Of a DNA stretch of 40,286 nt, positions 2,467 through 39,745 are shown one piece after another. Both the position numbers and the translations under genes were made by a program. The notes beneath the pieces were generated by a model. That model did not search any database and was not told the DNA's origin. It saw only the letters and a list, made by a program, of their open reading frames with translations. Every line of letters starts with the position of its first letter. Within the stretch, counting starts at the first letter, position 1. The stretch comes from Actinomycetes bacterium (GTDB lineage: Bacteria > Actinomycetota > Actinomycetes > S36-B12 > UBA10799), in NCBI GenBank assembly GCA_037133175.1, contig JBAXOQ010000003.1:1-40286 (forward strand). Reading direction: 5' to 3'.

Positions 2467-2625
2467 GAGTTTTATCGGTCCTCCCTGGGATTCTGATTCC
2501 GGTGTCCATCATGCTATTTAGACTGCACAGCGGGTTGCAGCGAGCGTGGGACGAACGGCCTATCGCCGGCGGCGGCCGAACGCGGCCGCCAGCTGGCGAA
2601 CGTCACCGGACGGCGGGAAACCCGT

Positions 2626-9042: not shown

Positions 9043-9361
9043 TGAGTCCTTAGCCATTTGTCGGGGTAGCGGGATCCGTCGCGCTCGCTGGCGCTCGCAA
9101 GACGCTCCTCCCAAACCCCACCGGGCTTTTGTCGGGGTAGCGGGACCCGTCGTCGCTTCGCTCCTCCTCCCAAATCCCCCTGGGCTTTTGACCGACAAAT
9201 GGCTAGGGACTCAAGGAAAAAGCGCCCTTGAGTCCCTAGCCATTTGTCGGGGTAGCGGGACCCGTCGTCGCTTCGCTCCTCCTCCCAAATCCCCCTGGGC
9301 TTTTGACCGACAAATGGCTAGGGACTCAAGGAAAAAGCGCCCTTGAGTCCCTAGCCATTTG
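9043..9361 (-). repeat. tRNA-linked tandem repeats: two identical 115-bp units plus one diverged 71-bp unit
   Basis: Core TTTGTCGGGGTAGCGGGA (tRNA 3' end) at 9057, 9128, 9243 and 9358; perfect 25-bp-stem hairpins at 9192-9250 and 9307-9365. Confidence 0.95.
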
Positions 9362-9435
<74 letters not shown>

Positions 9436-15140: not shown

Positions 15141-15500
15141 ATGAACTGGATCAAGGACTGGCCGGCCCATTCCGCGTGTCGCGGGGTCGACCCGGATCGA
15201 CTTTTCGTGCAAGGCGCGGCCCAGAACCGTGCGAAGGCGATCTGTGCCGGTTGTCCGGTCAGGAGTGAGTGCCTGGCCGACTCGCTTGACAACCAGATTG
15301 AGTTCGGTGTGTGGGGTGGCATGACCGAGCGAGAGCGTCGGGCGCTGCTTCGGCGTCGTCCGGACGTCTCGTCGTGGCGCAACTTGCTTGAGAGCGCGCG
15401 CAGTCGCCACCAGCAGAAGGCCGCGGTGGCGGACGCTCGTGAGACTGTTGCACTACCCCACCAGGCAGCCAGGGCATCGCTGGAGATGAGTTCGCGCTAA
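15141..15500 (+). CDS. whiB4: WhiB family Fe-S regulator (WhiB4/WblA)
   Basis: Four Cys, LFVQGAAQNRAK, GVWGG; divergent from ponA. Confidence 0.93.
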   Translation: MNWIKDWPAHSACRGVDPDRLFVQGAAQNRAKAICAGCPVRSECLADSLDNQIEFGVWGGMTERERRALLRRRPDVSSWRNLLESARSRHQQKAAVADARETVALPHQAARASLEMSSR

Positions 15501-17903: not shown

Positions 17904-19457
17904 GTGGATGCCCGCACGCTGACGGTGGTCTTGGTCGTGACGATTGTTGTCGAGGCTGTCGTTCTATTCGCCCAATACCGATCCAACAAGGCATACCAGG
18001 GACTCGGCTGGTGGGCAGCCGGCAATGCGGCCCTGGCTGTTGGTTTCGTGGCCAGTGCGGTTCGGGGCGAATCCTTCGCCGGGCATGTTGCGGTCGCACT
18101 GTCGCTGACTTTGTTCGTGGCCGGAATGTCTGCCGTCTACGTTGGTGTGGCCGATTTCTTGGAGCAGAGGACAGATCTGCGCTGGGTCGCGGCGTTCGTC
18201 GCCCTGTTCGCCGTTGCCATTTGCTACCTCACGTTCGTCGACGACCTGGTGGCGATCCGGCGGTCGGTGGTCTACCTGGGTGTTGCCATTGCATCGGCGA
18301 TGAGCGCCTGGTCGTTGATCCACAACCGACTCCCATCGGTTGGGCGCGCCGCCGTCTTCTTGTTCGCCGTGTTCTCTGTCAATGCCCTGCTGTACGCCGT
18401 CCTGTCCGTGGCTGAACTGCTCGGGGCCGACGCTGGGAAGTCCTTGCTCGCTGACACTCCCGCGTATGCGGCCGGCCTGCTGGTGGCGCTGGCGACGACA
18501 ATGCTGTGGACGTTTGGCCTGGTTATCATGATCAATCGCCGGCTGAGTGTCGACATCGATATCGAACGAGAGAATCTGCAACGCATCTTTGCGACCAGCC
18601 CGGACTCGACGATCATCAGCCGGTTGCGCGATGGGATGATCGTCGACGTCAACCAGGGTTTCACCCGGGTTACCGGCTACTCCCGCCAGGATGCAGTCGG
18701 GAACTCGTCCGTCCAGGTGCCGCTGTGGCGTCACCGGGAGGAGCGCGACAAGCTGGTCGAGATGCTGCTGGCAGACGGCGTTTGTGAGAACTTCGAGGCC
18801 GAGTTCCGGCGCAAGGACGGCACGACGATCAACGGAATAGTGTCTGCTCGACTGTTGAGTCTGCATGGTGAGCCACACATCATCGGCGTGACACGGGACA
18901 TCACCGAAAGCAAGCTACTGGAGCGAAAACTCAAACGCCAGGCCTCCACCGACAGTCTGACCGGGGTCGCGAACCGTCGGCACTTTCTGCTGGCAACCGC
19001 CCGCGAGCTCGCCCGGTCGCAGCGGCATTCCCTGCCGATGTCAGTGGCCTTGCTCGACGTGGACCACTTCAAAGATGTCAACGACACGTATGGGCACTCG
19101 GCCGGGGACGGTGCCTTGGTCGCGATCGTCTCGACTCTGCAGGCCCACATTCGCGAGATCGACATCATCGGTCGCCTTGGTGGGGACGAGTTCGCGATCA
19201 TGTTCCCGAATACCGACGCGGGTCAGGCGTCGCTGTCTGTCGAGCGCTGCCGAGAAGCGCTCAGCGAGCACCCTCTGCAGCTCGGCGGTGACTCGGTTCC
19301 GGTCACCTTCACCGGAGGGGTCTCCACCCTGTCAGGGGAACAGGAAACCGTCGACACCATGCTGGCCCGCGCGGACCGGGCGTTGTACGCGGCCAAGGAC
19401 GAGGGACGCAACCGCGTGGTGGTCGATCCTTCCCGGGCTCTGCCCAAACCGACGTGA
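17904..19457 (+). CDS. Membrane-bound PAS-GGDEF diguanylate cyclase
   Basis: About 7 hydrophobic helices, PAS/PAC (VNQGFTRVTGY...RDIT), DSLTG, DVDHFK, RxxD I-site (REID) and an intact GGDEF. Confidence 0.95.
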   Translation: MDARTLTVVLVVTIVVEAVVLFAQYRSNKAYQGLGWWAAGNAALAVGFVASAVRGESFAGHVAVALSLTLFVAGMSAVYVGVADFLEQRTDLRWVAAFVALFAVAICYLTFVDDLVAIRRSVVYLGVAIASAMSAWSLIHNRLPSVGRAAVFLFAVFSVNALLYAVLSVAELLGADAGKSLLADTPAYAAGLLVALATTMLWTFGLVIMINRRLSVDIDIERENLQRIFATSPDSTIISRLRDGMIVDVNQGFTRVTGYSRQDAVGNSSVQVPLWRHREERDKLVEMLLADGVCENFEAEFRRKDGTTINGIVSARLLSLHGEPHIIGVTRDITESKLLERKLKRQASTDSLTGVANRRHFLLATARELARSQRHSLPMSVALLDVDHFKDVNDTYGHSAGDGALVAIVSTLQAHIREIDIIGRLGGDEFAIMFPNTDAGQASLSVERCREALSEHPLQLGGDSVPVTFTGGVSTLSGEQETVDTMLARADRALYAAKDEGRNRVVVDPSRALPKPT

Positions 19458-22714: not shown

Positions 22715-23389
22715 TTACTTGGAGCGGCGTTCGAGGCGTTCGGGGTCCAGTAGTACGACGGAGCGGGACTCGAGCCGGATCCAGCCGCGGGCGGCGAAGT
22801 CGGCCAGCGCCTTGTTGACCGTCTCCCGGGATGCTCCGACCAGTTGGGCCAGCTCTTCCTGGGTCATGTCATGGGTGACGTGGAGCCCATCGGGCTGCGG
22901 GCGACCGAACTTCTCACCAAGCTCTAGCAGAGTCTTCGCAACCCGACCGGGGACATCGGAGAACACCAGGTCGGCCATCTGCTCGTTGGTCCGACGCAAC
23001 CGTTGTGCCAGAGCTGCCAGCAGCGCTTCGGCGACCTCCGGTCGGCCGGTGAGCCACGGGCGCAGGGCCAGATGCCCGAGGCCCATCAGCGACACGTCAG
23101 TCAGTGCGGTGGCGGTTGCGGTTCGGGGTCCGGGGTCGAACAGCGACAGTTCGCCGAGCAACTCGCCGGGGCCGAGGACGGCAAGCAGCGATTCGCGGCC
23201 GTCGGCCGAGGTGTGGCCGAGCTTCATCTTCCCTTCGGTGATGATGTACAGGCGTTCGCCTCGTTCGCCCTCGAGGAACAGGACCTGGCCCTTGCGGAGT
23301 TGCACGGCATCCATGGACGCGCGCAGAGCGGCGGCGGCTTCCGCGTCCAGGGTGGAGAACATTGGCGCGCGGCTGAGAACGTCGTTCAC
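22715..23389 (-). CDS. crp: Crp/Fnr family regulator (Crp/GlxR)
   Basis: GELSLFDPGPRTATA cNMP pocket; HTH TQEELAQLVGASRETVNKAL. Confidence 0.95.
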   Translation of the reverse strand: MNDVLSRAPMFSTLDAEAAAALRASMDAVQLRKGQVLFLEGERGERLYIITEGKMKLGHTSADGRESLLAVLGPGELLGELSLFDPGPRTATATALTDVSLMGLGHLALRPWLTGRPEVAEALLAALAQRLRRTNEQMADLVFSDVPGRVAKTLLELGEKFGRPQPDGLHVTHDMTQEELAQLVGASRETVNKALADFAARGWIRLESRSVVLLDPERLERRSK

Positions 23390-23558
23390 GATTACCCTTC
23401 AGTTCGTGTCGAGCACCTAGACCCTCAGGGCTTCGACGTTGGACAGTCTGCCGCAACCAGATAACTCTCGCACCCTCATAGCCTGGGATTTCGCCACCAA
23501 TTTGGACGCAGTGCGGCGATGCTCGCCGGATTCCAACACAATTGGCGCGTCCGCTGCG

Positions 23559-24194
23559 CTAGAGCGGCACCGGGTTCTCGGGCCTTGTGGGCAGTGCGGT
23601 CAGCGCCAAACTCGGGCACTCGCGGTAGCGGGACACCAGTTCGGCGGTGTACGCGTCGATCAGGTCGAACAGCTCCCGCCGCCGCGTCGACAGCTGCTGC
23701 TCGGCGGCCTTCAGATCAGCCTCGAGCGCGGCTCTCTCCTCGCCAGTCGGGTCGATTCCACGGTTCCACAGGTGCCCTAACCCGTCGATGGGCGGCATGC
23801 CGACACCGGGCTGAACATTCATCAGCGCCAAGCGGTTGTTGCTGCCGAGCTGCTGGGAGAGCACCCGCTGAAGTCCCTCGACGGTTGTGCCGCGCTTGAG
23901 TGATCCGTCTCGCAGCAGGTCCAGTCGGGCCTGGATGATCCGGCGCCAGTAGGAGACCCGGCCCTCCAGAGCCATCAATCGTTGCCTGCGCTCGCGGATC
24001 TCCTGCAAGGTGAGGTCCGCCAGCGGCGTCGTCACCGAGCCGGGCCGTGACCACGACTGCTCGGGTACCGAGTCGACGGAACCCCCGACCGAGTGTTGGC
24101 CGTCATTTCCGCTCGTGCTTGTACCGTCACGCTGTACCGCTCGCAGGTTGGATCGTCGCGAGCTCATCGCCGCTTCTACTCCAAGCTCAAACAT
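23559..24194 (-). CDS. rsiG: RsiG/AmfC-like c-di-GMP-binding anti-sigma factor
   Basis: EGRVSYWRRIIQARLD fits E-x3-S-x2-R-x3-Q-x3-D; a second, degenerate copy reads EQQLSTRRRELFDLID; C-terminal ELVSRYRE. The start may be 24167. Confidence 0.8.
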   Translation of the reverse strand: MFELGVEAAMSSRRSNLRAVQRDGTSTSGNDGQHSVGGSVDSVPEQSWSRPGSVTTPLADLTLQEIRERRQRLMALEGRVSYWRRIIQARLDLLRDGSLKRGTTVEGLQRVLSQQLGSNNRLALMNVQPGVGMPPIDGLGHLWNRGIDPTGEERAALEADLKAAEQQLSTRRRELFDLIDAYTAELVSRYRECPSLALTALPTRPENPVPL

Positions 24195-24286
24195 GCCGCT
24201 CCCCGGTTGTTCGATCCGATGCCGTTAGGCGCCGTGTCTGCCGTGAGTTCCCGGTAGCTGATCTCACGACTTGGGTTCTGGCATGG

Positions 24287-24313
24287 TTATCGGGCGTCGT
24301 CAACGATTCCTGA
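24287..24313 (-). promoter_or_regulatory. Putative sigma28 (FliA/WhiG)-type promoter for the rsiG-like gene
   Basis: TCAG-N15-CCCGATAA compared with the consensus TAAA-N15/16-GCCGATAA. Confidence 0.55.
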
Positions 24314-24354
24314 ACCCAACGGTCGTCCGATCGGGTGACCAGTAGGCTGGCTGG

Positions 24355-25209
24355 GTGGTCGAACCGGCACCGAAATCGGACAAAGGGCCCATTCGGGACA
24401 ACATTTCCACACCCAAGGTAACCGGAAACGCCTCTGAGCCTGCGGTCCCAGCAGTCCGGACGCCAGGTGCCAGCGCCGCGCAACTGCGTCGTCACCGGCG
24501 CGCGTTCGCGAATGAGACCCGCTTGGCGTTGGTCAGACGGGCTCGCCGGATGGGCCGAATTCTGGCCAGCACGTACCCCGACGCTCATTGCGAACTTGAT
24601 TTCGACGGGCCGTTCCAATTGCTGGTGGCGACCATCCTGTCGGCTCAGTGCACAGATGTCCGGGTCAATGTCGTGACCCCGGCGGTGTTCGCAAGGTTCC
24701 CGGACCCACAGGCGATGGCTTCGGCGGATCGCGCGGAGCTTGAGCAACTCATCTCGTCAACCGGCTTCTTCCGAGCGAAATCCACCTCGCTACTAGGCAC
24801 GTCATCGGCGCTGTGTGACCGGTTCGGTGGGCGGGTGCCCTCTCGGATGGCGGATTTGGTGACTCTGCCGGGGGTGGGTCGAAAGACAGCCAACGTGGTG
24901 CTGGGCAACGCTTTCGGGGTGCCCGGAATCACCGTTGATACCCACTTCGGACGGTTGTCCCGTCGGTTCGGCTGGACCGTCAAGGCCGATCCGGTGGAGG
25001 TTGAGCACGACGTCGGCGGGTTGTTCCCGCGTCGCGAGTGGACGGACCTGTCGCACCGGATGATCTTTCATGGCAGACGCATCTGCCACAGCCGAAAGCC
25101 CGCTTGTGGAGCCTGCCCGTTGGCGATGCTGTGTCCATCGTTCGGGCTGGGACCGATTGATTACGATGCGGCCGCTGCGCTGGTGAAGGTCGGCGCCGGG
25201 TCCGGGTGA
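24355..25209 (+). CDS. nth: Endonuclease III
   Basis: LSAQCTD, Hh[11 protein letters not shown]-x6-C-x2-C-x5-C; TAGGCT -10 box 6 nt before the GTG. Confidence 0.96.
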
Positions 25210-34580: not shown

Positions 34581-35363
34581 TTAGTGGTTGTGGCGCAGCC
34601 GGTTTGTGGTGTACCAGGCGATTCCGAGCGCTGCTGCGCCAGCGCTGGCAGCTGCCGCGTAGGACCTGTTGTGGGTGCTTCGTGTGCGCATCGCGACCGG
34701 CTTGCGAAAGTCGAGCACGGGCCACACTCGTTCGCGCGCGAGTTCACGCAGTTCTTTGTCCGGGTTAGTCGGGAACGGGTGTCCAATGGCCTCAAGCATC
34801 GGGAGATCGGTGATCGAATCTGAGTACGCGTAGCACTCGCTGAGGTCGTATCCCTCATCTTCGGCTATGGCGCGAATGGCTTGCGCTTTGCCTGGGCCGT
34901 AGGCGTAGAAGAGAATCTCTCCGGTGTACTTGCCGTCTTCGATGGCGACCTGGGTACCTATCGCTTTGTCCGCTCCGAGCAGCGTGCAGATCGGCTCGAT
35001 TATCTCGGTCCCCGACGATGAGATCACGATGACGTCCCGGCCAGCGTGATGGTGTTCATCGAACAGCGTCAGGGCTTCGGAGTAGACGATCGGTTCGATG
35101 ACGGTGCCGAGCGCGTCGGTGACGATCTCGCGGACGTGTTCGACGTCCCAACCTTTCACCAGATCGGACAGGTAGGCGCGCATCTGCTCCATCTGTTGGT
35201 CGTCCGCTCCCGCCAGCAGGTACATGAACTGGCTGTAGGCGCTCTTGATCAGATCGCCGCGGTTCAACAGGCCTTGTTGGTACAGCGGCTTGGCGTAAGC
35301 CAAGGTGCTCGACTTGGCAAGCAGCGTCTTGTCGAGATCGAAGAAAGCGGCTGCCCTGGTCAT
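34581..35363 (-). CDS. HAD-IB family hydrolase (Rv3661-like)
   Basis: AAFFDLDKT and AYSDSITDLPML motifs, C-terminal TM helix; TAGGAT 7 nt before ATG 35363. Confidence 0.95.
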   Translation of the reverse strand: MTRAAAFFDLDKTLLAKSSTLAYAKPLYQQGLLNRGDLIKSAYSQFMYLLAGADDQQMEQMRAYLSDLVKGWDVEHVREIVTDALGTVIEPIVYSEALTLFDEHHHAGRDVIVISSSGTEIIEPICTLLGADKAIGTQVAIEDGKYTGEILFYAYGPGKAQAIRAIAEDEGYDLSECYAYSDSITDLPMLEAIGHPFPTNPDKELRELARERVWPVLDFRKPVAMRTRSTHNRSYAAAASAGAAALGIAWYTTNRLRHNH

Positions 35364-35526
35364 ACCTTCGATCCTAATTCTCCGTGGCGGTCTGCGACAG
35401 TCCATCGGCTGCGAATCCGGCCGTCCAGGCCTGTGAGTTCGGCTGTAGTCACGCTAGCGGTTTCTTCTTGGGGCTGCTTTGGTGTTTTGTTCGGGTTGCT
35501 TTGGTACTTTGTTCGGGGTGTCAGTG

Positions 35527-35555
35527 TTGCGCCAACATGGGTAGTCATGCATACT
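35527..35555 (+). promoter_or_regulatory. Putative promoter of the 6C RNA
   Basis: TTGCGC-17 nt-CATACT. Confidence 0.55.
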
Positions 35556-35561
35556 GATCTC

Positions 35562-35645
35562 GCTCGGTTTCTTACCGACCGCTCCGACGAATCCCCCCTC
35601 GTCGGACAGAAGCCCCCCGCTCCCCCCAGCGGGGGTCTTCGCTTT
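35562..35645 (+). ncRNA. 6C RNA
   Basis: Two hairpins (35583-35606 and 35609-35640), each with a CCCCCC loop, located between HAD and ssd as in other actinobacteria. Confidence 0.9.
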
Positions 35646-35683
35646 AACCGGTCCGCGTACGTCTTAACCGGGCTGCGTACATC
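35644..35683. repeat. Tandem 20-bp imperfect repeat
   Basis: TTAACCGGTCCGCGTACGTC / TTAACCGGGCTGCGTACATC (17/20 identical). Confidence 0.7.
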
Positions 35684-35689
35684 GTCACG

Positions 35690-35725
35690 ATATCCACAAT
35701 CGGCGAGGGCAAGCAGTTGTCCACA
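35690..35725 (+). promoter_or_regulatory. Pair of DnaA-box-like sites upstream of ssd
   Basis: ATATCCACA at 35690 and perfect TTGTCCACA at 35717. Confidence 0.55.
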
Positions 35726-35756
35726 GGCTCAGTCTGGGGACCATCGCCGTGAGCCG

Positions 35757-36923
35757 ATGACGGGTCAGAGTATGGGTATGAGTGCCGAAACCGCATCGCT
35801 TGCCATCGCTACCGCTGACTGGGGGGCGGGTCCCGTCGGGCCCAGACCGCTGGTCGTCACGGACGACGTCGATCTGCTGGATGATCTACTGCGACTCGTC
35901 GCCGCCGCCCGAGTCGAGGCGGACGCCGCCACGTCTCTCGCCGCAGTTCGAGCTCGCTGGTCCGGCGCGCCGCTAGTGGTCGTTGGGGCTGACACTCTCG
36001 CGCGCCTCGGCGGGGGTCACGTACCTCGACGACCCGGGGTGATTATCGCCACGCGAACTGGCGACGACCAGGGGCTGTGGAAGGACGCCGTCGAACTCGG
36101 AGCCGAGCAGGTGGTCGTGCTGCCCGAGGGCGAGTCGTGGCTGGTGGATCGGCTGGCCGGACTCACCGACGGGCTGGCGCCGGATGCCCCAGTCGTAGCA
36201 GTCATCGGCGGTCGCGGCGGTGCGGGTGCCACCACCTTCGCCGCTGCGATCGCCGTCGCGGCTGCACGGGCGGGCCACCGCGTCAGTGCCGTAGACCTCG
36301 ATCCGATGGGCTCTGGTCTCGACGTGACGTTGGGCAGCGACTGCGCGGACGGACTGCGGTGGGGGGATATCGCCAGGACGAGGGGACGGGTTCCGCCATC
36401 GCTGTTGGCAGATGGGTTGCTGTCCGTCGACGGGGTCCGAGTTCTGACTTGGTCGCCAGGACCGTGCGAGGTTCTGTGGCCCGGTGCTGCTGGCGCTGCC
36501 ATTGACGCGCTGCGGCGTGTCAGCGACGTTGTGGTCGTCGATCTGCCCAGGACGCCATCGGACTCGGTTGGCGAGGCTATCTGCCGGGCAACTCGAGTCC
36601 TGGTCGTTGTTCCCAAAGACACCCACTCGCTGTCGGCGAGTGCTCGGTTGGTGACCTCGCCGGTGTTGGTCGGTGCGGAGTTGCGGCTGGTCACCCGAGG
36701 TCCGTCTCCAGCAGGGTTGAGCGCGTCTGAGATTGCGCAGGTGCTCTGTATTCCGGTGTTGGCTGACATTCGCTAGGAGCAGTCGCTGGGTCGCAACCTG
36801 GAGATGGGGTTGGCCCCGGGGGATGGCCGACGCAGTCCGCTGAGCAGGGCAGGCCGAATGGTGCTAGCTGAGTTAGGGGTCGGATCCGGTGGCGTAACTG
36901 GTGATCGTGGGCGGGCCGCATGA
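35757..36923 (+). pseudogene. ssd: Septum site-determining protein Ssd (CpaE/TadZ-like) with in-frame TAG at 36774-36776
   Basis: Receiver-like N-terminus and deviant P-loop GGRGGAGATT; the frame continues 48 Ssd-like codons past the TAG to a TGA overlapping the tadA ATG. Start 35757-35778. Confidence 0.8.
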
Positions 36924-38191
36924 GGAAGTTGCTGCAATCACAAGTGCTCGAAGGGGCTGATGGCCACGTGCTGGTGCCCGAGGGCCTCGTCGACCGGGTC
37001 AGGGACCGGCTCGCCGCCAACGGTTGGGCGGCGACCCCCTCGAAGGTCGCTGAGGCGCTGCTCGCTGAGGGAGCGATTCTCGGTGACGCAGCGGTTCTCG
37101 ACGTGGTGGCTGGGCTCAGGTCGGAGTTGGCCGGCGCGGGTCCCTTGGAAGCACTGCTGCGGGAGCCCGATGTTACCGACGTGCTGGTCAATGGGCCCGA
37201 CTCCGTGTGGGTCGACCGTGGATCGGGGCCAACCCTTGAGCCCGTCAGATTCCGGGATGAGGCCGCGGTCCGTCGCTTGGCCCAGCGTTTGGCTGCCAGC
37301 GCGGGACGGCGACTCGACGATGCGACCCCCTACGTTGATGCTCGAATGCCGGACGGGACCCGGCTGCACGCCATATTGCCGCCGGTTGCGCCAAGGGGCA
37401 CCTGCGTGTCGCTGCGGATTCCGAGGCGACGTGTCTTCACTCTGTCTGACCTTGTCGACCTTGGGACAGTCCCGGCGGAGGGCTCGAGGTGGTTGTTTGC
37501 GCTGGTCCGGTCGCGGTGCGCTTTCCTCATCAGCGGGGGCACTGGAAGTGGGAAAACTACGCTGCTAAGTGCGTTGCTGTCGGTCTGCGACGCCGGCGAG
37601 CGGATGCTTCTGGTGGAGGATTCTGGGGAGCTTGAGCCCGCCCACCCACACGTGGTTCGTCTGGAGGGGCGTCCGGCGAACGTCGAGGGCCACGGACAGG
37701 TCACGATGCGCGACCTGGTTCGGCAGGCGTTGCGGATGCGGCCGGATCGGTTGGTCGTCGGAGAGGTCCGAGGCGCGGAGGTCGTTGATTTGCTGGCCGC
37801 CCTGAACACAGGTCACGAAGGGGGTTGCGGAACGGTTCACGCTAACTCAGCCACAGATGTCCCGGCCCGGCTTGAGGCGCTGGCGTTGGCGGCCGGTCTG
37901 GGCAGGGAGGCGCTGCATGCCCAAGTTGCGGCCGGTCTTGACGCAGTCGTTCACATTGAGCGAGATCGGGCGGGAATTCGCAGAGTCTCAGGCATCCACA
38001 TACTGCGACGCGGCAGTGACGCCATGGTCTCGAGTATGCAGGCGGTCTCGTTCGGTGATGGCACCGTTCAATACGGCGCGGCGGCTCCCGAACTCGCGCG
38101 TCGTTTGGATTTGCCGCTGTCGGTGGGCGAGCTGTCAGATGGCGACCGCGACGATGGCGACGGGTGCGCACCGGTCGGTGAAGAGGCCTGA
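36920..38191 (+). CDS. tadA: TadA/CpaF pilus assembly ATPase
   Basis: GGTGSGKTT, ALRMRPDRLVVGEVRG and NTGHEG motifs. Confidence 0.96.
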   Translation: MRKLLQSQVLEGADGHVLVPEGLVDRVRDRLAANGWAATPSKVAEALLAEGAILGDAAVLDVVAGLRSELAGAGPLEALLREPDVTDVLVNGPDSVWVDRGSGPTLEPVRFRDEAAVRRLAQRLAASAGRRLDDATPYVDARMPDGTRLHAILPPVAPRGTCVSLRIPRRRVFTLSDLVDLGTVPAEGSRWLFALVRSRCAFLISGGTGSGKTTLLSALLSVCDAGERMLLVEDSGELEPAHPHVVRLEGRPANVEGHGQVTMRDLVRQALRMRPDRLVVGEVRGAEVVDLLAALNTGHEGGCGTVHANSATDVPARLEALALAAGLGREALHAQVAAGLDAVVHIERDRAGIRRVSGIHILRRGSDAMVSSMQAVSFGDGTVQYGAAAPELARRLDLPLSVGELSDGDRDDGDGCAPVGEEA

Positions 38192-38192
38192 G

Positions 38193-38969
38193 GTGGCGGG
38201 TTTCGGTGGTGGTTGGCCGGTCGCTGCCGCGGGTCTGGCGGCGATGGCGGCGGCATTGCTGTTCGGCGCGCCGTTTCGGCGTGCTCCGTTCCGTGCAGTG
38301 CGGGTGCTGGCCGATCGCTCAGGCACGCTCGCAAACGGTGATAGCCCGGATTCGGACCTGAACGGCAAGTTCGGCCCGTTCGCTTGGGTGTCGAGCTGGA
38401 TCGTCGGCTGCGTGCGACACCGCACAGAATGCGCCGGACGGCGTTCGGCCGCTCTTGAGGTGCTGGCCGCATTCGCTGCCGAGCTACGCGCGGGTCAGCC
38501 GGTTCGTACCGCGTTGGAGCGGGCATGTGCCGCCGCGCCGCGTGCCGTCTGTCCCAGGGCGGTCGGCGTCGCCCGCCTCGGAGGGGACGTTCCCCGGGCG
38601 CTGCAGCTCGACGCAGCTGATCAAGGGTTACCCGTGCTGCGTTCGCTGGCCGCGTTGTGGCAGGTGGCCGAGGGTTCGGGTGCTGGCCTGGCCAAGGCTG
38701 TGGACCGACTGTGCATCGCGGAGGGCAGCAACGAACAGGTTCGGCGCTCGCTGGCCTCGGAATTGGCCGGCCCGAAGGCCACAGCCAAGGTGCTGGCGGT
38801 CTTACCGGTGATCGGTCTGTTGATGGGCAGCGGGTTGGGGGCTTCGCCGCTTGGATGGCTGCTCGGTTCGCCGTGGGGCCTGGCGGTGCTGCTCGCAGGC
38901 GTGGTGCTGGAGTGGGCGGGGCTGTGGTGGACGGCCCGACTAACCCGGGCCGTGGAGGCTTTGCTGTGA
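38193..38969 (+). CDS. tadB: Type II secretion system F family protein (TadB-like)
   Basis: ELRAG...W..AEGSGAGLA...LAVLP and TM helices; follows tadA. Start approximate. Confidence 0.88.
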   Translation: MAGFGGGWPVAAAGLAAMAAALLFGAPFRRAPFRAVRVLADRSGTLANGDSPDSDLNGKFGPFAWVSSWIVGCVRHRTECAGRRSAALEVLAAFAAELRAGQPVRTALERACAAAPRAVCPRAVGVARLGGDVPRALQLDAADQGLPVLRSLAALWQVAEGSGAGLAKAVDRLCIAEGSNEQVRRSLASELAGPKATAKVLAVLPVIGLLMGSGLGASPLGWLLGSPWGLAVLLAGVVLEWAGLWWTARLTRAVEALL

Positions 38970-39745
38970 CATTGACGCTGGTGGTCGCGGCGGGGCTGGT
39001 CACTCTGGCCGTGCTGCTGATGTTGAAGCCGGTGGCGTCGGTGTCACGTCGGGTCAGGCCGGCGCAGATCGTGCGGTTGGCTTCCGGTGACCACCGACTT
39101 GCTGCTGGCCCAAGCCGCGCTCTGGCGCGGGATCAGGTGGCCACGCGACGGCGCAACCAATGGGCTGCTCTGATCGCGGCGGTCGGTGTTTGGGCGCTGG
39201 TGGGAGGGCCGGCGGGGGTGGTTTTGGGCGCAGCGTTGGTTGTCTTGGGTCCGGCCGCGCTGGCGCGCCTTGAGCCCCGGTCGGTGCGGCATCGACGTCA
39301 GACACTCGAAGCGACGGCGCCCATGGTGGCGGACCTGCTGGCAGCCTGCTTGGAGTCAGGAGCATCGACCGCAGCATCGGTGCAGGCTGTGGCACGGGCG
39401 CTGGAGGAGCCGGTGGAGTCGGTGCTGGGCAATTGTGTCGCGCAGATTCAGTTGGGAGCGGATCCGGCTCGGGTTTGGGGTGCGCTCGCACAGGAGCCTG
39501 AGCTGGCTCCGATCGCCCGATCCATTCTCCGATCGGCAGACTCCGGCGCTCCGCTGGCAGATTTGCTGCTGCGAACCGGCGACGATCTTCGATCCGTTCG
39601 ACGGGCACGGTTGGAGGCTCTGGCCAGATCTGCTGGCATCAAGGCCGTGGGTCCATTGGGCGTGTGTTTTCTGCCGGCATTCATGTTGCTTGGTGTGGTT
39701 CCGTTGGTCGCCAGCCTCGTGGGCACCATGCTCGCGCGAGGGTGA
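38966..39745 (+). CDS. tadC: Type II secretion system F family protein (TadC-like)
   Basis: DLLAACLESG, SGAPLA and PLGVCFLPAF motifs; GTGA overlap with the upstream gene. Confidence 0.9.
   Translation: MTLTLVVAAGLVTLAVLLMLKPVASVSRRVRPAQIVRLASGDHRLAAGPSRALARDQVATRRRNQWAALIAAVGVWALVGGPAGVVLGAALVVLGPAALARLEPRSVRHRRQTLEATAPMVADLLAACLESGASTAASVQAVARALEEPVESVLGNCVAQIQLGADPARVWGALAQEPELAPIARSILRSADSGAPLADLLLRTGDDLRSVRRARLEALARSAGIKAVGPLGVCFLPAFMLLGVVPLVASLVGTMLARG

Follow-up and report, generated by a model that had tools for sequence, protein, structure and literature searches.

We analyzed a stretch of 40,286 bp (hereafter the window; 64.6% G+C, no N), which makes up the entire metagenomic contig JBAXOQ010000003.1 of an Actinomycetes bacterium, focusing on a gene that encodes a relative of RsiG, the anti-sigma factor that is armed by cyclic di-GMP (c-di-GMP) against the sigma factor WhiG. 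The rsiG-like gene is located at 23559..24194 on the minus strand (stop codon included) and encodes a protein of 211 amino acids, as defined by the list of open reading frames (ORFs), its translation and a match to Pfam family PF22802; a second ATG at 24167 leads to a 202-amino-acid form, which is the one entered in the protein database. Downstream on the same strand, separated by a gap of 169 nt, lies crp (22715..23389, minus strand; Pfam cNMP_binding and HTH_Crp_2). The gene nth for endonuclease III (24355..25209, plus strand; Pfam HhH-GPD and HHH) is oriented divergently and shares a common intergenic region with rsiG. Within this region, a sigma28/WhiG-type promoter-like element, TCAGGAATCGTTGACGACGCCCGATAA, is found at 24287-24313 on the minus strand.

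The assignment to RsiG, already proposed in an earlier, sequence-only reading of this DNA, was supported by several comparisons. The Pfam model of RsiG (PF22802) matched with 54.4 bits against a cut-off of 27 (expectation value (E) 9.9e-15), and the same domain is carried by all 120 relatives listed. When the PDB was searched by sequence with phmmer, the significant matches were RsiG chains only, including Rubrobacter 7lq4_D (E 1.8e-5) and Streptomyces venezuelae 6pfj_T (E 5.6e-5). The S. venezuelae chain aligns in HMMER over residues 51-193 and covers both motif helices. An AlphaFold2 model based on the alignment of the 120 relatives reached a mean predicted local distance difference test score (pLDDT) of 77 and consists of a disordered N-terminus of ~56 residues and two long helices (63-96 and 151-192) with pLDDT >90. 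The four best Foldseek matches of this model in the PDB were S. venezuelae RsiG chains (probability 0.91-0.99, ~27-28% identity), the next match having a probability of 0.12. A Pfam scan at E up to 1 gave RsiG alone and no membership in the FlgM family. Likewise, the single-motif form of Rubrobacter and Thermoleophilia does not fit a protein with two motif helices whose alignment to the twin-motif chain spans 51-193. Judged by these sequence comparisons, the gene genuinely belongs to the RsiG family and is of the twin-motif type. According to the homologue search, this family reaches Nocardioides salarius, where the UniRef name is ‘RsiG-like domain-containing protein’.

The first c-di-GMP motif, EGRVSYWRRIIQARLD (residues 77-92, nt 23919-23966, minus strand), is located in helix 1 and represents an exact E-x3-S-x2-R-x3-Q-x3-D. 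The second, EQQLSTRRRELFDLID (residues 165-180, nt 23655-23702, minus strand), is part of the second long helix; here, Glu, Ser, Arg and Asp are kept and Phe is found at the Gln position. For both copies, the coordinates and residues given in the sequence-only reading agree with the translation of the ORF. In the HMMER alignment to 6pfj_T, this Phe (F176) stands opposite the Gln of the second-helix motif of S. venezuelae, EQQISRRRHHLQRTAD. In the structure of S. venezuelae RsiG, the Glu residues contact the ribose hydroxyls of c-di-GMP, the Arg residues the Hoogsteen face of the central guanines and the Asp residues the Watson-Crick face of the outer guanines, and Gln75 and Gln173 stack on the outer guanine bases (PMC7005675). 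His often replaces Gln in the first helix of the alignments in PMC7005675 and is termed equally suitable. In PMC8325347, the motif is given with [Q/H] at the stacking position, and the His-type RsiG of Conexibacter woesei binds c-di-GMP with a dissociation constant (Kd) of 25 uM (PMC8325347).

Among the relatives, the first motif is strictly conserved. In an alignment of 120 rows (the listed homologues minus the window's own entry plus the query; best 120 of 168 at E up to 1e-3), its E, S, R, Q and D were invariant in 120/120 rows. In the second motif, Glu and Ser were each present in 119 rows and Arg in all 120, the stacking position was occupied by His (103) or Phe (17) and by Gln in none (0), and the last position showed Asp (61), Gly (35), Ala (22) or Ser (2). 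A profile search of 1.84 billion representatives yielded 1227 clusters (50% identity) at E up to 1e-3. From this search, 145 new representatives were listed, 121 of them with a recognisable first motif. The stacking position of the second motif could be scored in 105 of these (94 His, 7 Phe, 2 Ile, 2 Leu, 0 Gln), and 16/121 representatives had no second motif detectable by the pattern used.

Related loci were obtained by a genome-contig scan seeded on SYWRRIIQ, which gave 139 species-level loci with a relative; the best 80 of these 139 were kept. A quick maximum-likelihood tree with midpoint rooting was calculated from 81 RsiG sequences (the window and the 80 loci), in which the stacking residue is His in 71 and Phe in 9 sequences, with 1 left unscored. 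On this tree, the His/Phe state requires five changes by parsimony, at least three of which are forced by well-supported branches, and the window protein belongs to a seven-member clade (support 100) of four Phe and three His sequences. Since the Phe sequences branch within His-type groups and at least three switches are required, Phe is derived and recurrent. With Glu, Ser, Arg and Asp kept, Gln found in 0/120 aligned relatives and Phe recurring within His-type lineages, the second motif can no longer be called ‘degenerate’, as had been suggested from the sequence alone. Relative to its kin, the change is one from His to Phe, and this pattern fits a tolerated aromatic stacking residue, not decay. 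By analogy, Phe at position 176 could stack on guanine like His or Gln, and the stacking position of the second pocket appears to tolerate Phe as well as His. The tree also contains a 45-member Frankiales/Mycobacteriales clade in which the second motif ends with Gly, Ala or Ser instead of Asp and in which the -10 box upstream of rsiG is often GACGAC and not GCCGAT.

It is conceivable that Phe disables or alters the second site, which would result in weak c-di-GMP binding, another stoichiometry or another nucleotide as ligand, and in a constitutive or differently tuned anti-sigma factor. Phe cannot substitute for Gln or His in their polar contacts, and its presence at the stacking site is unreported in the available parts of PMC7005675 and PMC8325347. 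Furthermore, 59/120 aligned relatives have Gly, Ala or Ser in place of the terminal Asp of motif 2, which indicates that the second site is less constrained than the first. However, the published role of this residue is guanine stacking (PMC7005675), a role that an aromatic ring could fulfil, and the window protein keeps its motif-2 Asp. Moreover, Phe is found repeatedly, in several lineages that have each retained it, suggesting that it is tolerated or selected. On balance, we consider an impaired or altered second site unlikely.

The promoter-like element upstream of rsiG is composed of a -35 box TCAG (24310-24313), a 15-nt spacer and the -10 box CCCGATAA (24287-24294). The distance from the end of the -10 box to the ATG is 92 nt for the start at 24194, matching the ~90 nt noted previously, and 119 nt for the start at 24167. 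The predicted rsiG leader accordingly covers 24195..24286 (minus strand), with transcription expected to start near 24280. The pattern TCAG-N14-16-CCCGATAA has a single match in the window, and 0/100 shuffles contained any match. The bare 7-mer CCGATAA is not rare in the window (2 found vs 1.74 expected); its second copy (2472-2478, minus strand) lies between a GGGAGGA ribosome-binding site and a GTG start at 2466, shows a 13-nt spacing to TCAG, and was read as a chance occurrence.

Most of the related loci show (C)TCAAG followed by a variable stretch of 14-15 nt and then GCCGAT or GACGAC, when anchored on the -35-like box. For a consensus count, 80 sequences were assessable (79 loci and the window). 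A T[C/A/T]A[A/G]-N15/16-NNCGA site was present in 64/80 of them, 59 of these sites having a TNA[A/G]G anchor. All 59 anchored sites share T, A and G of the -35 box and CGA of the -10 box; 56 of them have G as the first -10 base, and their spacing is either N16 (43 sites) or N15 (16 sites). The -10 hexamers of the 64 sites comprise GCCGAT (26), GACGAC (22), GCCGAA (4), ACCGAT (2) and five singletons, with 5 sites being unanchored. Based on a strict pattern (T[CAT]A[AG]G-N14-15-G[CA]CGA[TCA]), the element was detected upstream of rsiG on the forward strand in 54/79 loci, compared to 0/79 on the opposite strand of the same segments, 6/1580 in dinucleotide shuffles of the upstream segments and 33/5000 in random 420-nt windows of the loci. 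An earlier score-based scan had given 27/81 at a score of at least 10 vs 63/4000 random windows (the row of locus L041, which scored <10, is invalid). When the window and its six closest loci were aligned, conservation was confined to the two boxes and an additional block farther upstream and did not extend to the spacer or the leader.

These findings strengthen the sigma28-type promoter that had been proposed from the window alone. In the preprint of PMC13595943, the WhiG2 site is given as T(A/C)AA-N16-GCCGATAA and the WhiG1 site as CTCA-N16-17-GCCGAACT, and the classical TAAA / GCCGATAA consensus was used for Rubrobacter (PMC8325347). The consensus of the rsiG loci, (C)TCAAG-N15/16-G[C/A]CGA[T/C], fits all three. 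A second conserved block, CCACCCGAT(C)AGC(C/G)TAC, is located 25-45 nt upstream of the -35 box in L001-L006 (window ~24320-24345, minus strand); its reverse complement holds TAGGCT / TACGCT, which could be the -10 box of a divergent nth promoter. Two subclades of the RsiG tree, labelled Nanopelagicales and uncultured Actinomycetes, are devoid of any sigma28-like element upstream of rsiG, with both His and Asp of the motifs intact. The first comprises L013, L016, L022, L023, L027, L033, L036, L050 and L059, the second L047, L056, L069, L070, L073, L074 and L077; they may represent a loss or rewiring of the feedback discussed below.

The sigma28-like element might, however, be recognised by a WhiG1 paralogue of the flagellar type or by some other sigma factor, or might serve as the operator of a DNA-binding regulator, in which case there would be no direct feedback. 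The -35 sequence CTCAAG holds both the WhiG1 (CTCA) and the WhiG2 (TCAA) form, the -10 sequence GACGAC of 22/64 sites is further from GCCGATAA, and the preprint of PMC13595943 was likewise unable to tell WhiG1 from WhiG2 sites. Against this stand the two boxes at a fixed spacing with a variable spacer, the strand bias (54 vs 0 of 79) and the CGA core in 59/59 anchored sites, which correspond to the published WhiG/FliA consensus. A CRP operator was also rejected, as the palindrome TGTGA-N6-TCACA, allowing up to two mismatches, was not enriched (6 matches vs 13.8 expected). A different reader of the element thus seems rather doubtful.

Further explanations for the conservation of this region were searched. 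A sequence of the closest loci, GGTTCAAGTCC, resembles the T-arm of a tRNA; ARAGORN predicted no tRNA there or near the gene, Rfam gave no match at 23300-24700, and the folding energy of the leader was not unusual compared to shuffles (z = -0.78), and a tRNA or structured RNA was rejected. No sigma70-type promoter or intrinsic terminator pattern was found at 23300-24500. Other sigma28-like sites in the window all lie within coding regions, so that no further WhiG targets can be proposed.

The gene order around rsiG is conserved in the related loci. Of the 80 loci, 79 originate from metagenome-assembled genomes (MAGs) assigned to Nanopelagicales, Frankiales, Mycobacteriales, Actinomycetota and one Acidothermus sp., and one is labelled ‘uncultured bacterium’. 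The clade carrying this rsiG-like gene is large and known almost only in uncultured Nanopelagicales, Frankiales and ‘Mycobacteriales’ genomes. nth is located divergently upstream of rsiG in 79/80 loci, the exception being L041 with only 25 nt of upstream sequence. crp follows downstream on the same strand in 77/80 loci; L033 and L049 end within 600 nt, and L046 shows 10 kb downstream of rsiG without crp. Given these frequencies, the nth / rsiG-crp order is of old date, and rsiG did not enter it recently: the sequence-only reading had correctly placed the gene between crp and nth, and only its word ‘inserted’ has to be dropped. Homologues of mbl, ridA, nudix and marP also co-occur around nth-crp in the loci. 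The estimated gap between rsiG and crp ranges from 27 to 1209 nt with a median of ~232 (78 tblastn segments). Judging from these sizes, most crp genes probably have their own promoter, and a few could be co-transcribed with rsiG.

Among the Pfam-scanned ORFs of the window, no sigma factor was found. In S. venezuelae, no anti-sigma homologue is located within 50 kb of whiG (PMC7005675), and in the loci studied here rsiG and whiG likewise appear to be unlinked, as in Streptomyces. We infer the presence of whiG in this organism, and the promoter footprint would imply that the uncultured lineages keep a sigma28-type factor. The sole hint that a genus with a crp-linked rsiG (L078) has WhiG2 comes from Acidothermus cellulolyticus 11B, which is listed with one WhiG1, one WhiG2 and one RsiG (PMC13595943, Table S1) and whose RsiG may be the crp-linked one.

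The surface of the protein that would face the sigma factor is conserved as well. According to PMC7005675, the RsiG residues contacting sigma2/sigma4 of WhiG are Tyr69, Ile80, Arg54, Arg57, Arg58, Ile183 and Tyr187. They were mapped via the 6pfj_T alignment, the numbering of which was verified against the motif residues of that paper. In the window protein, their counterparts are Y82 (Tyr69), L93 (Ile80), R67 (Arg54), R70 (Arg57), Q71 (Arg58), L186 (Ile183) and Y190 (Tyr187). Y82, R70 and Y190 are invariant among the 120 aligned rows, and R67 and L186 are nearly so. Additionally, residues 55-205 of the window protein, together with the alignment, were modelled against S. coelicolor WhiG (RPSW_STRCO) as a stand-in, with two c-di-GMP included. 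The modelled complex scored 0.84, compared to 0.00 for the best of three controls; the mark used for this score was reached by 58/80 solved complexes and 2/110 mismatched pairs. The runs shared at least 80% of the contacts, and the partner pLDDT was at least 79. The confident interface comprises positions 67, 82, 85-90, 93, 186-187 and 190-191 of the window protein and 55-69 and 237-248 of WhiG. As a similar complex (6PFJ/6PFV) has already been solved and the sigma factor is from another genus, this result indicates likeness to the RsiG-WhiG complex, not binding.

These results also bear on the question of whether the crp-linked clade has left the WhiG system and now provides a receptor for c-di-GMP that acts on a different partner and may be linked to Crp/cyclic AMP (cAMP) signalling. 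The nearly universal linkage to crp (77/80 loci) and the lack of a sigma gene nearby, as judged by a region-2 pattern in the 80 loci and the window, would be in line with this idea. However, synteny extends over the entire region around nth and crp (mbl, ridA, nudix, marP), so that the linkage to crp may be passive, and rsiG of S. venezuelae is unlinked to whiG as well (PMC7005675). Together with the conserved WhiG-contact residues and the modelled WhiG interface, which agrees with them, this makes a change of partner very improbable. Least credible is the proposal of the sequence-only reading that the protein is an asymmetric intermediate between the single-motif homodimeric form (Rubrobacter type) and twin-motif RsiG, with a half-formed or decaying second motif: although this motif is not canonical and the best PDB sequence match is, by a small margin, the single-motif Rubrobacter RsiG (1.8e-5 vs 5.6e-5), both helices align to the twin-motif RsiG of S. 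venezuelae, motif 2 keeps its Glu, Ser, Arg and Asp, Phe is nested in His-type sequences with at least three forced switches (five by parsimony), Gln is absent from the stacking position of all 120 aligned relatives, and single-motif forms are, in the available part of PMC8325347, placed in Rubrobacteria and Thermoleophilia only.

Overall, we consider it probable that the locus encodes a twin-motif RsiG which is armed by c-di-GMP against a WhiG2-type sigma factor and stands behind a conserved WhiG-type promoter, resulting in a gated negative feedback. In this model, a monomeric twin-motif RsiG, armed by a c-di-GMP dimer, would sequester a sigma28-type WhiG of the WhiG2 clade. The first helix contributes the canonical motif, and the pocket should remain functional with the Phe of the second helix, which stands in place of the His that most of the clade has. 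As the WhiG-type promoter would drive rsiG, free WhiG would raise the level of its own inhibitor. The additional RsiG would be effective only in the presence of c-di-GMP, and the negative feedback would thereby be gated by the second messenger. Binding of c-di-GMP, binding of WhiG and WhiG-dependent transcription of rsiG are thus predicted features of the system. The conservation of the sigma28-type promoter in the relatives makes the FlgM-like loop put forward in the sequence-only reading plausible. A more far-reaching version appears quite improbable. In this version, the nth / rsiG-crp clade would have a single circuit: WhiG transcribes the inhibitor that c-di-GMP arms against it, read-through into crp at gaps of 27-60 nt wires the c-di-GMP and cAMP regulons together, and His-to-Phe swaps retune the affinity or specificity for the ligand between lineages.

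Several points weigh against the proposed feedback by a c-di-GMP-armed RsiG. With respect to the protein, NCBIfam gave no match, and the Foldseek matches to S. venezuelae RsiG have E values of 0.07-0.3 (none at or below 0.001), a template modelling (TM) score of ~0.5 by target length and a root-mean-square deviation of 6-8 A. Owing to its Phe, the second motif is strictly outside the pattern published with [Q/H], and the main text of PMC8325347 contains the word ‘phenylalanine’ 0 times. The score of the modelled complex was obtained with a sigma factor from another genus and may reflect the model's memory of 6PFJ/6PFV. With respect to the partner, 0 ORFs of the sigma70 family with at least 150 amino acids were detected in the window or in the 80 loci (up to 10 kb on either side), using a crude region-2 regular expression and no profile search. 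The promoter of the window itself deviates from the consensus, since its -35 box is TCAG, whereas the fourth base is A in 57/59 sites, and its -10 box starts with C, compared to G in 56/59, making it the sole CCCGAT among the 64 sites. Across the loci, the strict element is missing in 25/79 cases, and two RsiG subclades are without any such element. Finally, the related genomes share common ancestry, and the conservation of the promoter (54/79) could therefore be partly inherited and not selected, with inflated counts.

Compared to known systems, the window protein most closely follows the twin-motif monomer RsiG (AmfC) of S. venezuelae, whose structures with WhiG and (c-di-GMP)2 are 6PFJ and 6PFV. 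Both belong to the same Pfam family, both motif helices align, the first motif is identical in pattern, and the counterparts of Arg54, Arg57, Tyr69, Ile183 and Tyr187 are conserved. In contrast to S. venezuelae RsiG, Gln173 of the second helix is replaced by Phe, and the gene lies between nth and crp, behind a putative sigma28-type promoter. The single-motif homodimeric RsiG of Rubrobacter radiotolerans (7LQ2-7LQ4) shares the first-helix motif and its flanks (E 1.8e-5), and the His-type RsiG of C. woesei provides an example of a non-Gln stacking residue with which c-di-GMP is still bound (PMC8325347). Unlike these two proteins (~85-118 residues, no second helix), the window protein has a second helix.

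The predicted arrangement, with an anti-sigma gene behind a promoter of the very sigma factor it inhibits, is reminiscent of FlgM and FliA (sigma28), as flgM has a sigma28-dependent promoter. While FlgM is released by secretion, RsiG would be released by a fall in c-di-GMP. To our knowledge, RsiG is the only anti-sigma factor armed by a second messenger, and the RsiG-WhiG pair has been studied in Streptomyces, Rubrobacter and Geodermatophilus. The present data extend the family to a large clade (139 species-level loci, 1227 clusters) which, judging from the 80 loci kept, consists almost entirely of uncultured actinobacteria from freshwater and soil. If confirmed, the conserved autoregulatory promoter would add a feedback arm, in which the sigma factor activates its own inhibitor, to the published switch. 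The gain over the known RsiG-WhiG system is incremental and does not constitute a new kind of system.

None of these three aspects (the extension of the clade, the tolerance of Phe and the autoregulatory promoter) was found in the literature texts searched. The main texts of PMC7005675, PMC8325347, PMC13595943 with its preprint, and PMC13232838 contain no statement on rsiG as a WhiG target or on an rsiG promoter, the supplementary target lists being only partly covered. In the CSV supplements of PMC13595943, RsiG occurs only as a column header, and the targets are given under RefSeq tags that are not mappable to RsiG. A full-text literature search for RsiG together with Nanopelagicales returned nothing. 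According to the preprint of PMC13595943, predicted WhiG sites precede the genes of WhiG homologues themselves in some species, and diguanylate cyclases and phosphodiesterases are the commonest predicted targets.

A possible source of c-di-GMP is encoded in the window by a PAS-GGDEF diguanylate cyclase gene (17904..19457, plus strand; Pfam GGDEF 2.2e-42 and PAS), located 3.3 kb past crp. Its GGDEF motif is intact (amino acids 426-430), with an RxxD inhibitory-site motif five residues upstream, and based on this gene the organism probably makes c-di-GMP. GGDEF homologues (37-43% identity) were observed in 8/80 loci, ~6-6.8 kb to the nth side; with so few occurrences, and these on the nth side, the position of the GGDEF gene is not conserved.

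The remaining neighbours were assigned by scanning 104 ORFs (130 amino acids or longer) against Pfam. Around crp and nth, the window encodes a ponA-like penicillin-binding protein (PBP), two ArsA-like ATPases, RidA, a NUDIX protein and a protein with a metallo-beta-lactamase fold; further genes code for a CvpA-trypsin protein, NhaA, an acetyl-CoA synthetase and Tad pilus components. This gene set represents the usual actinobacterial neighbourhood. The Tad/Flp-type pilus set (35046-39745, plus strand) comprises a CpaE-like ATPase, a TadA-like T2SSE ATPase and two T2SSF membrane proteins, and the window scan found no sigma28-like site in front of these genes. A WhiB-like small protein with four Cys (15141-15500, plus strand) adjoins the two ArsA-like ATPase genes and the class A PBP, an order (WhiB-like / ArsA-like ATPases / class A PBP around crp) that is also found in mycobacteria. 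The window additionally carries a tRNA-Pro (CGG) gene at 9361-9435 on the minus strand.

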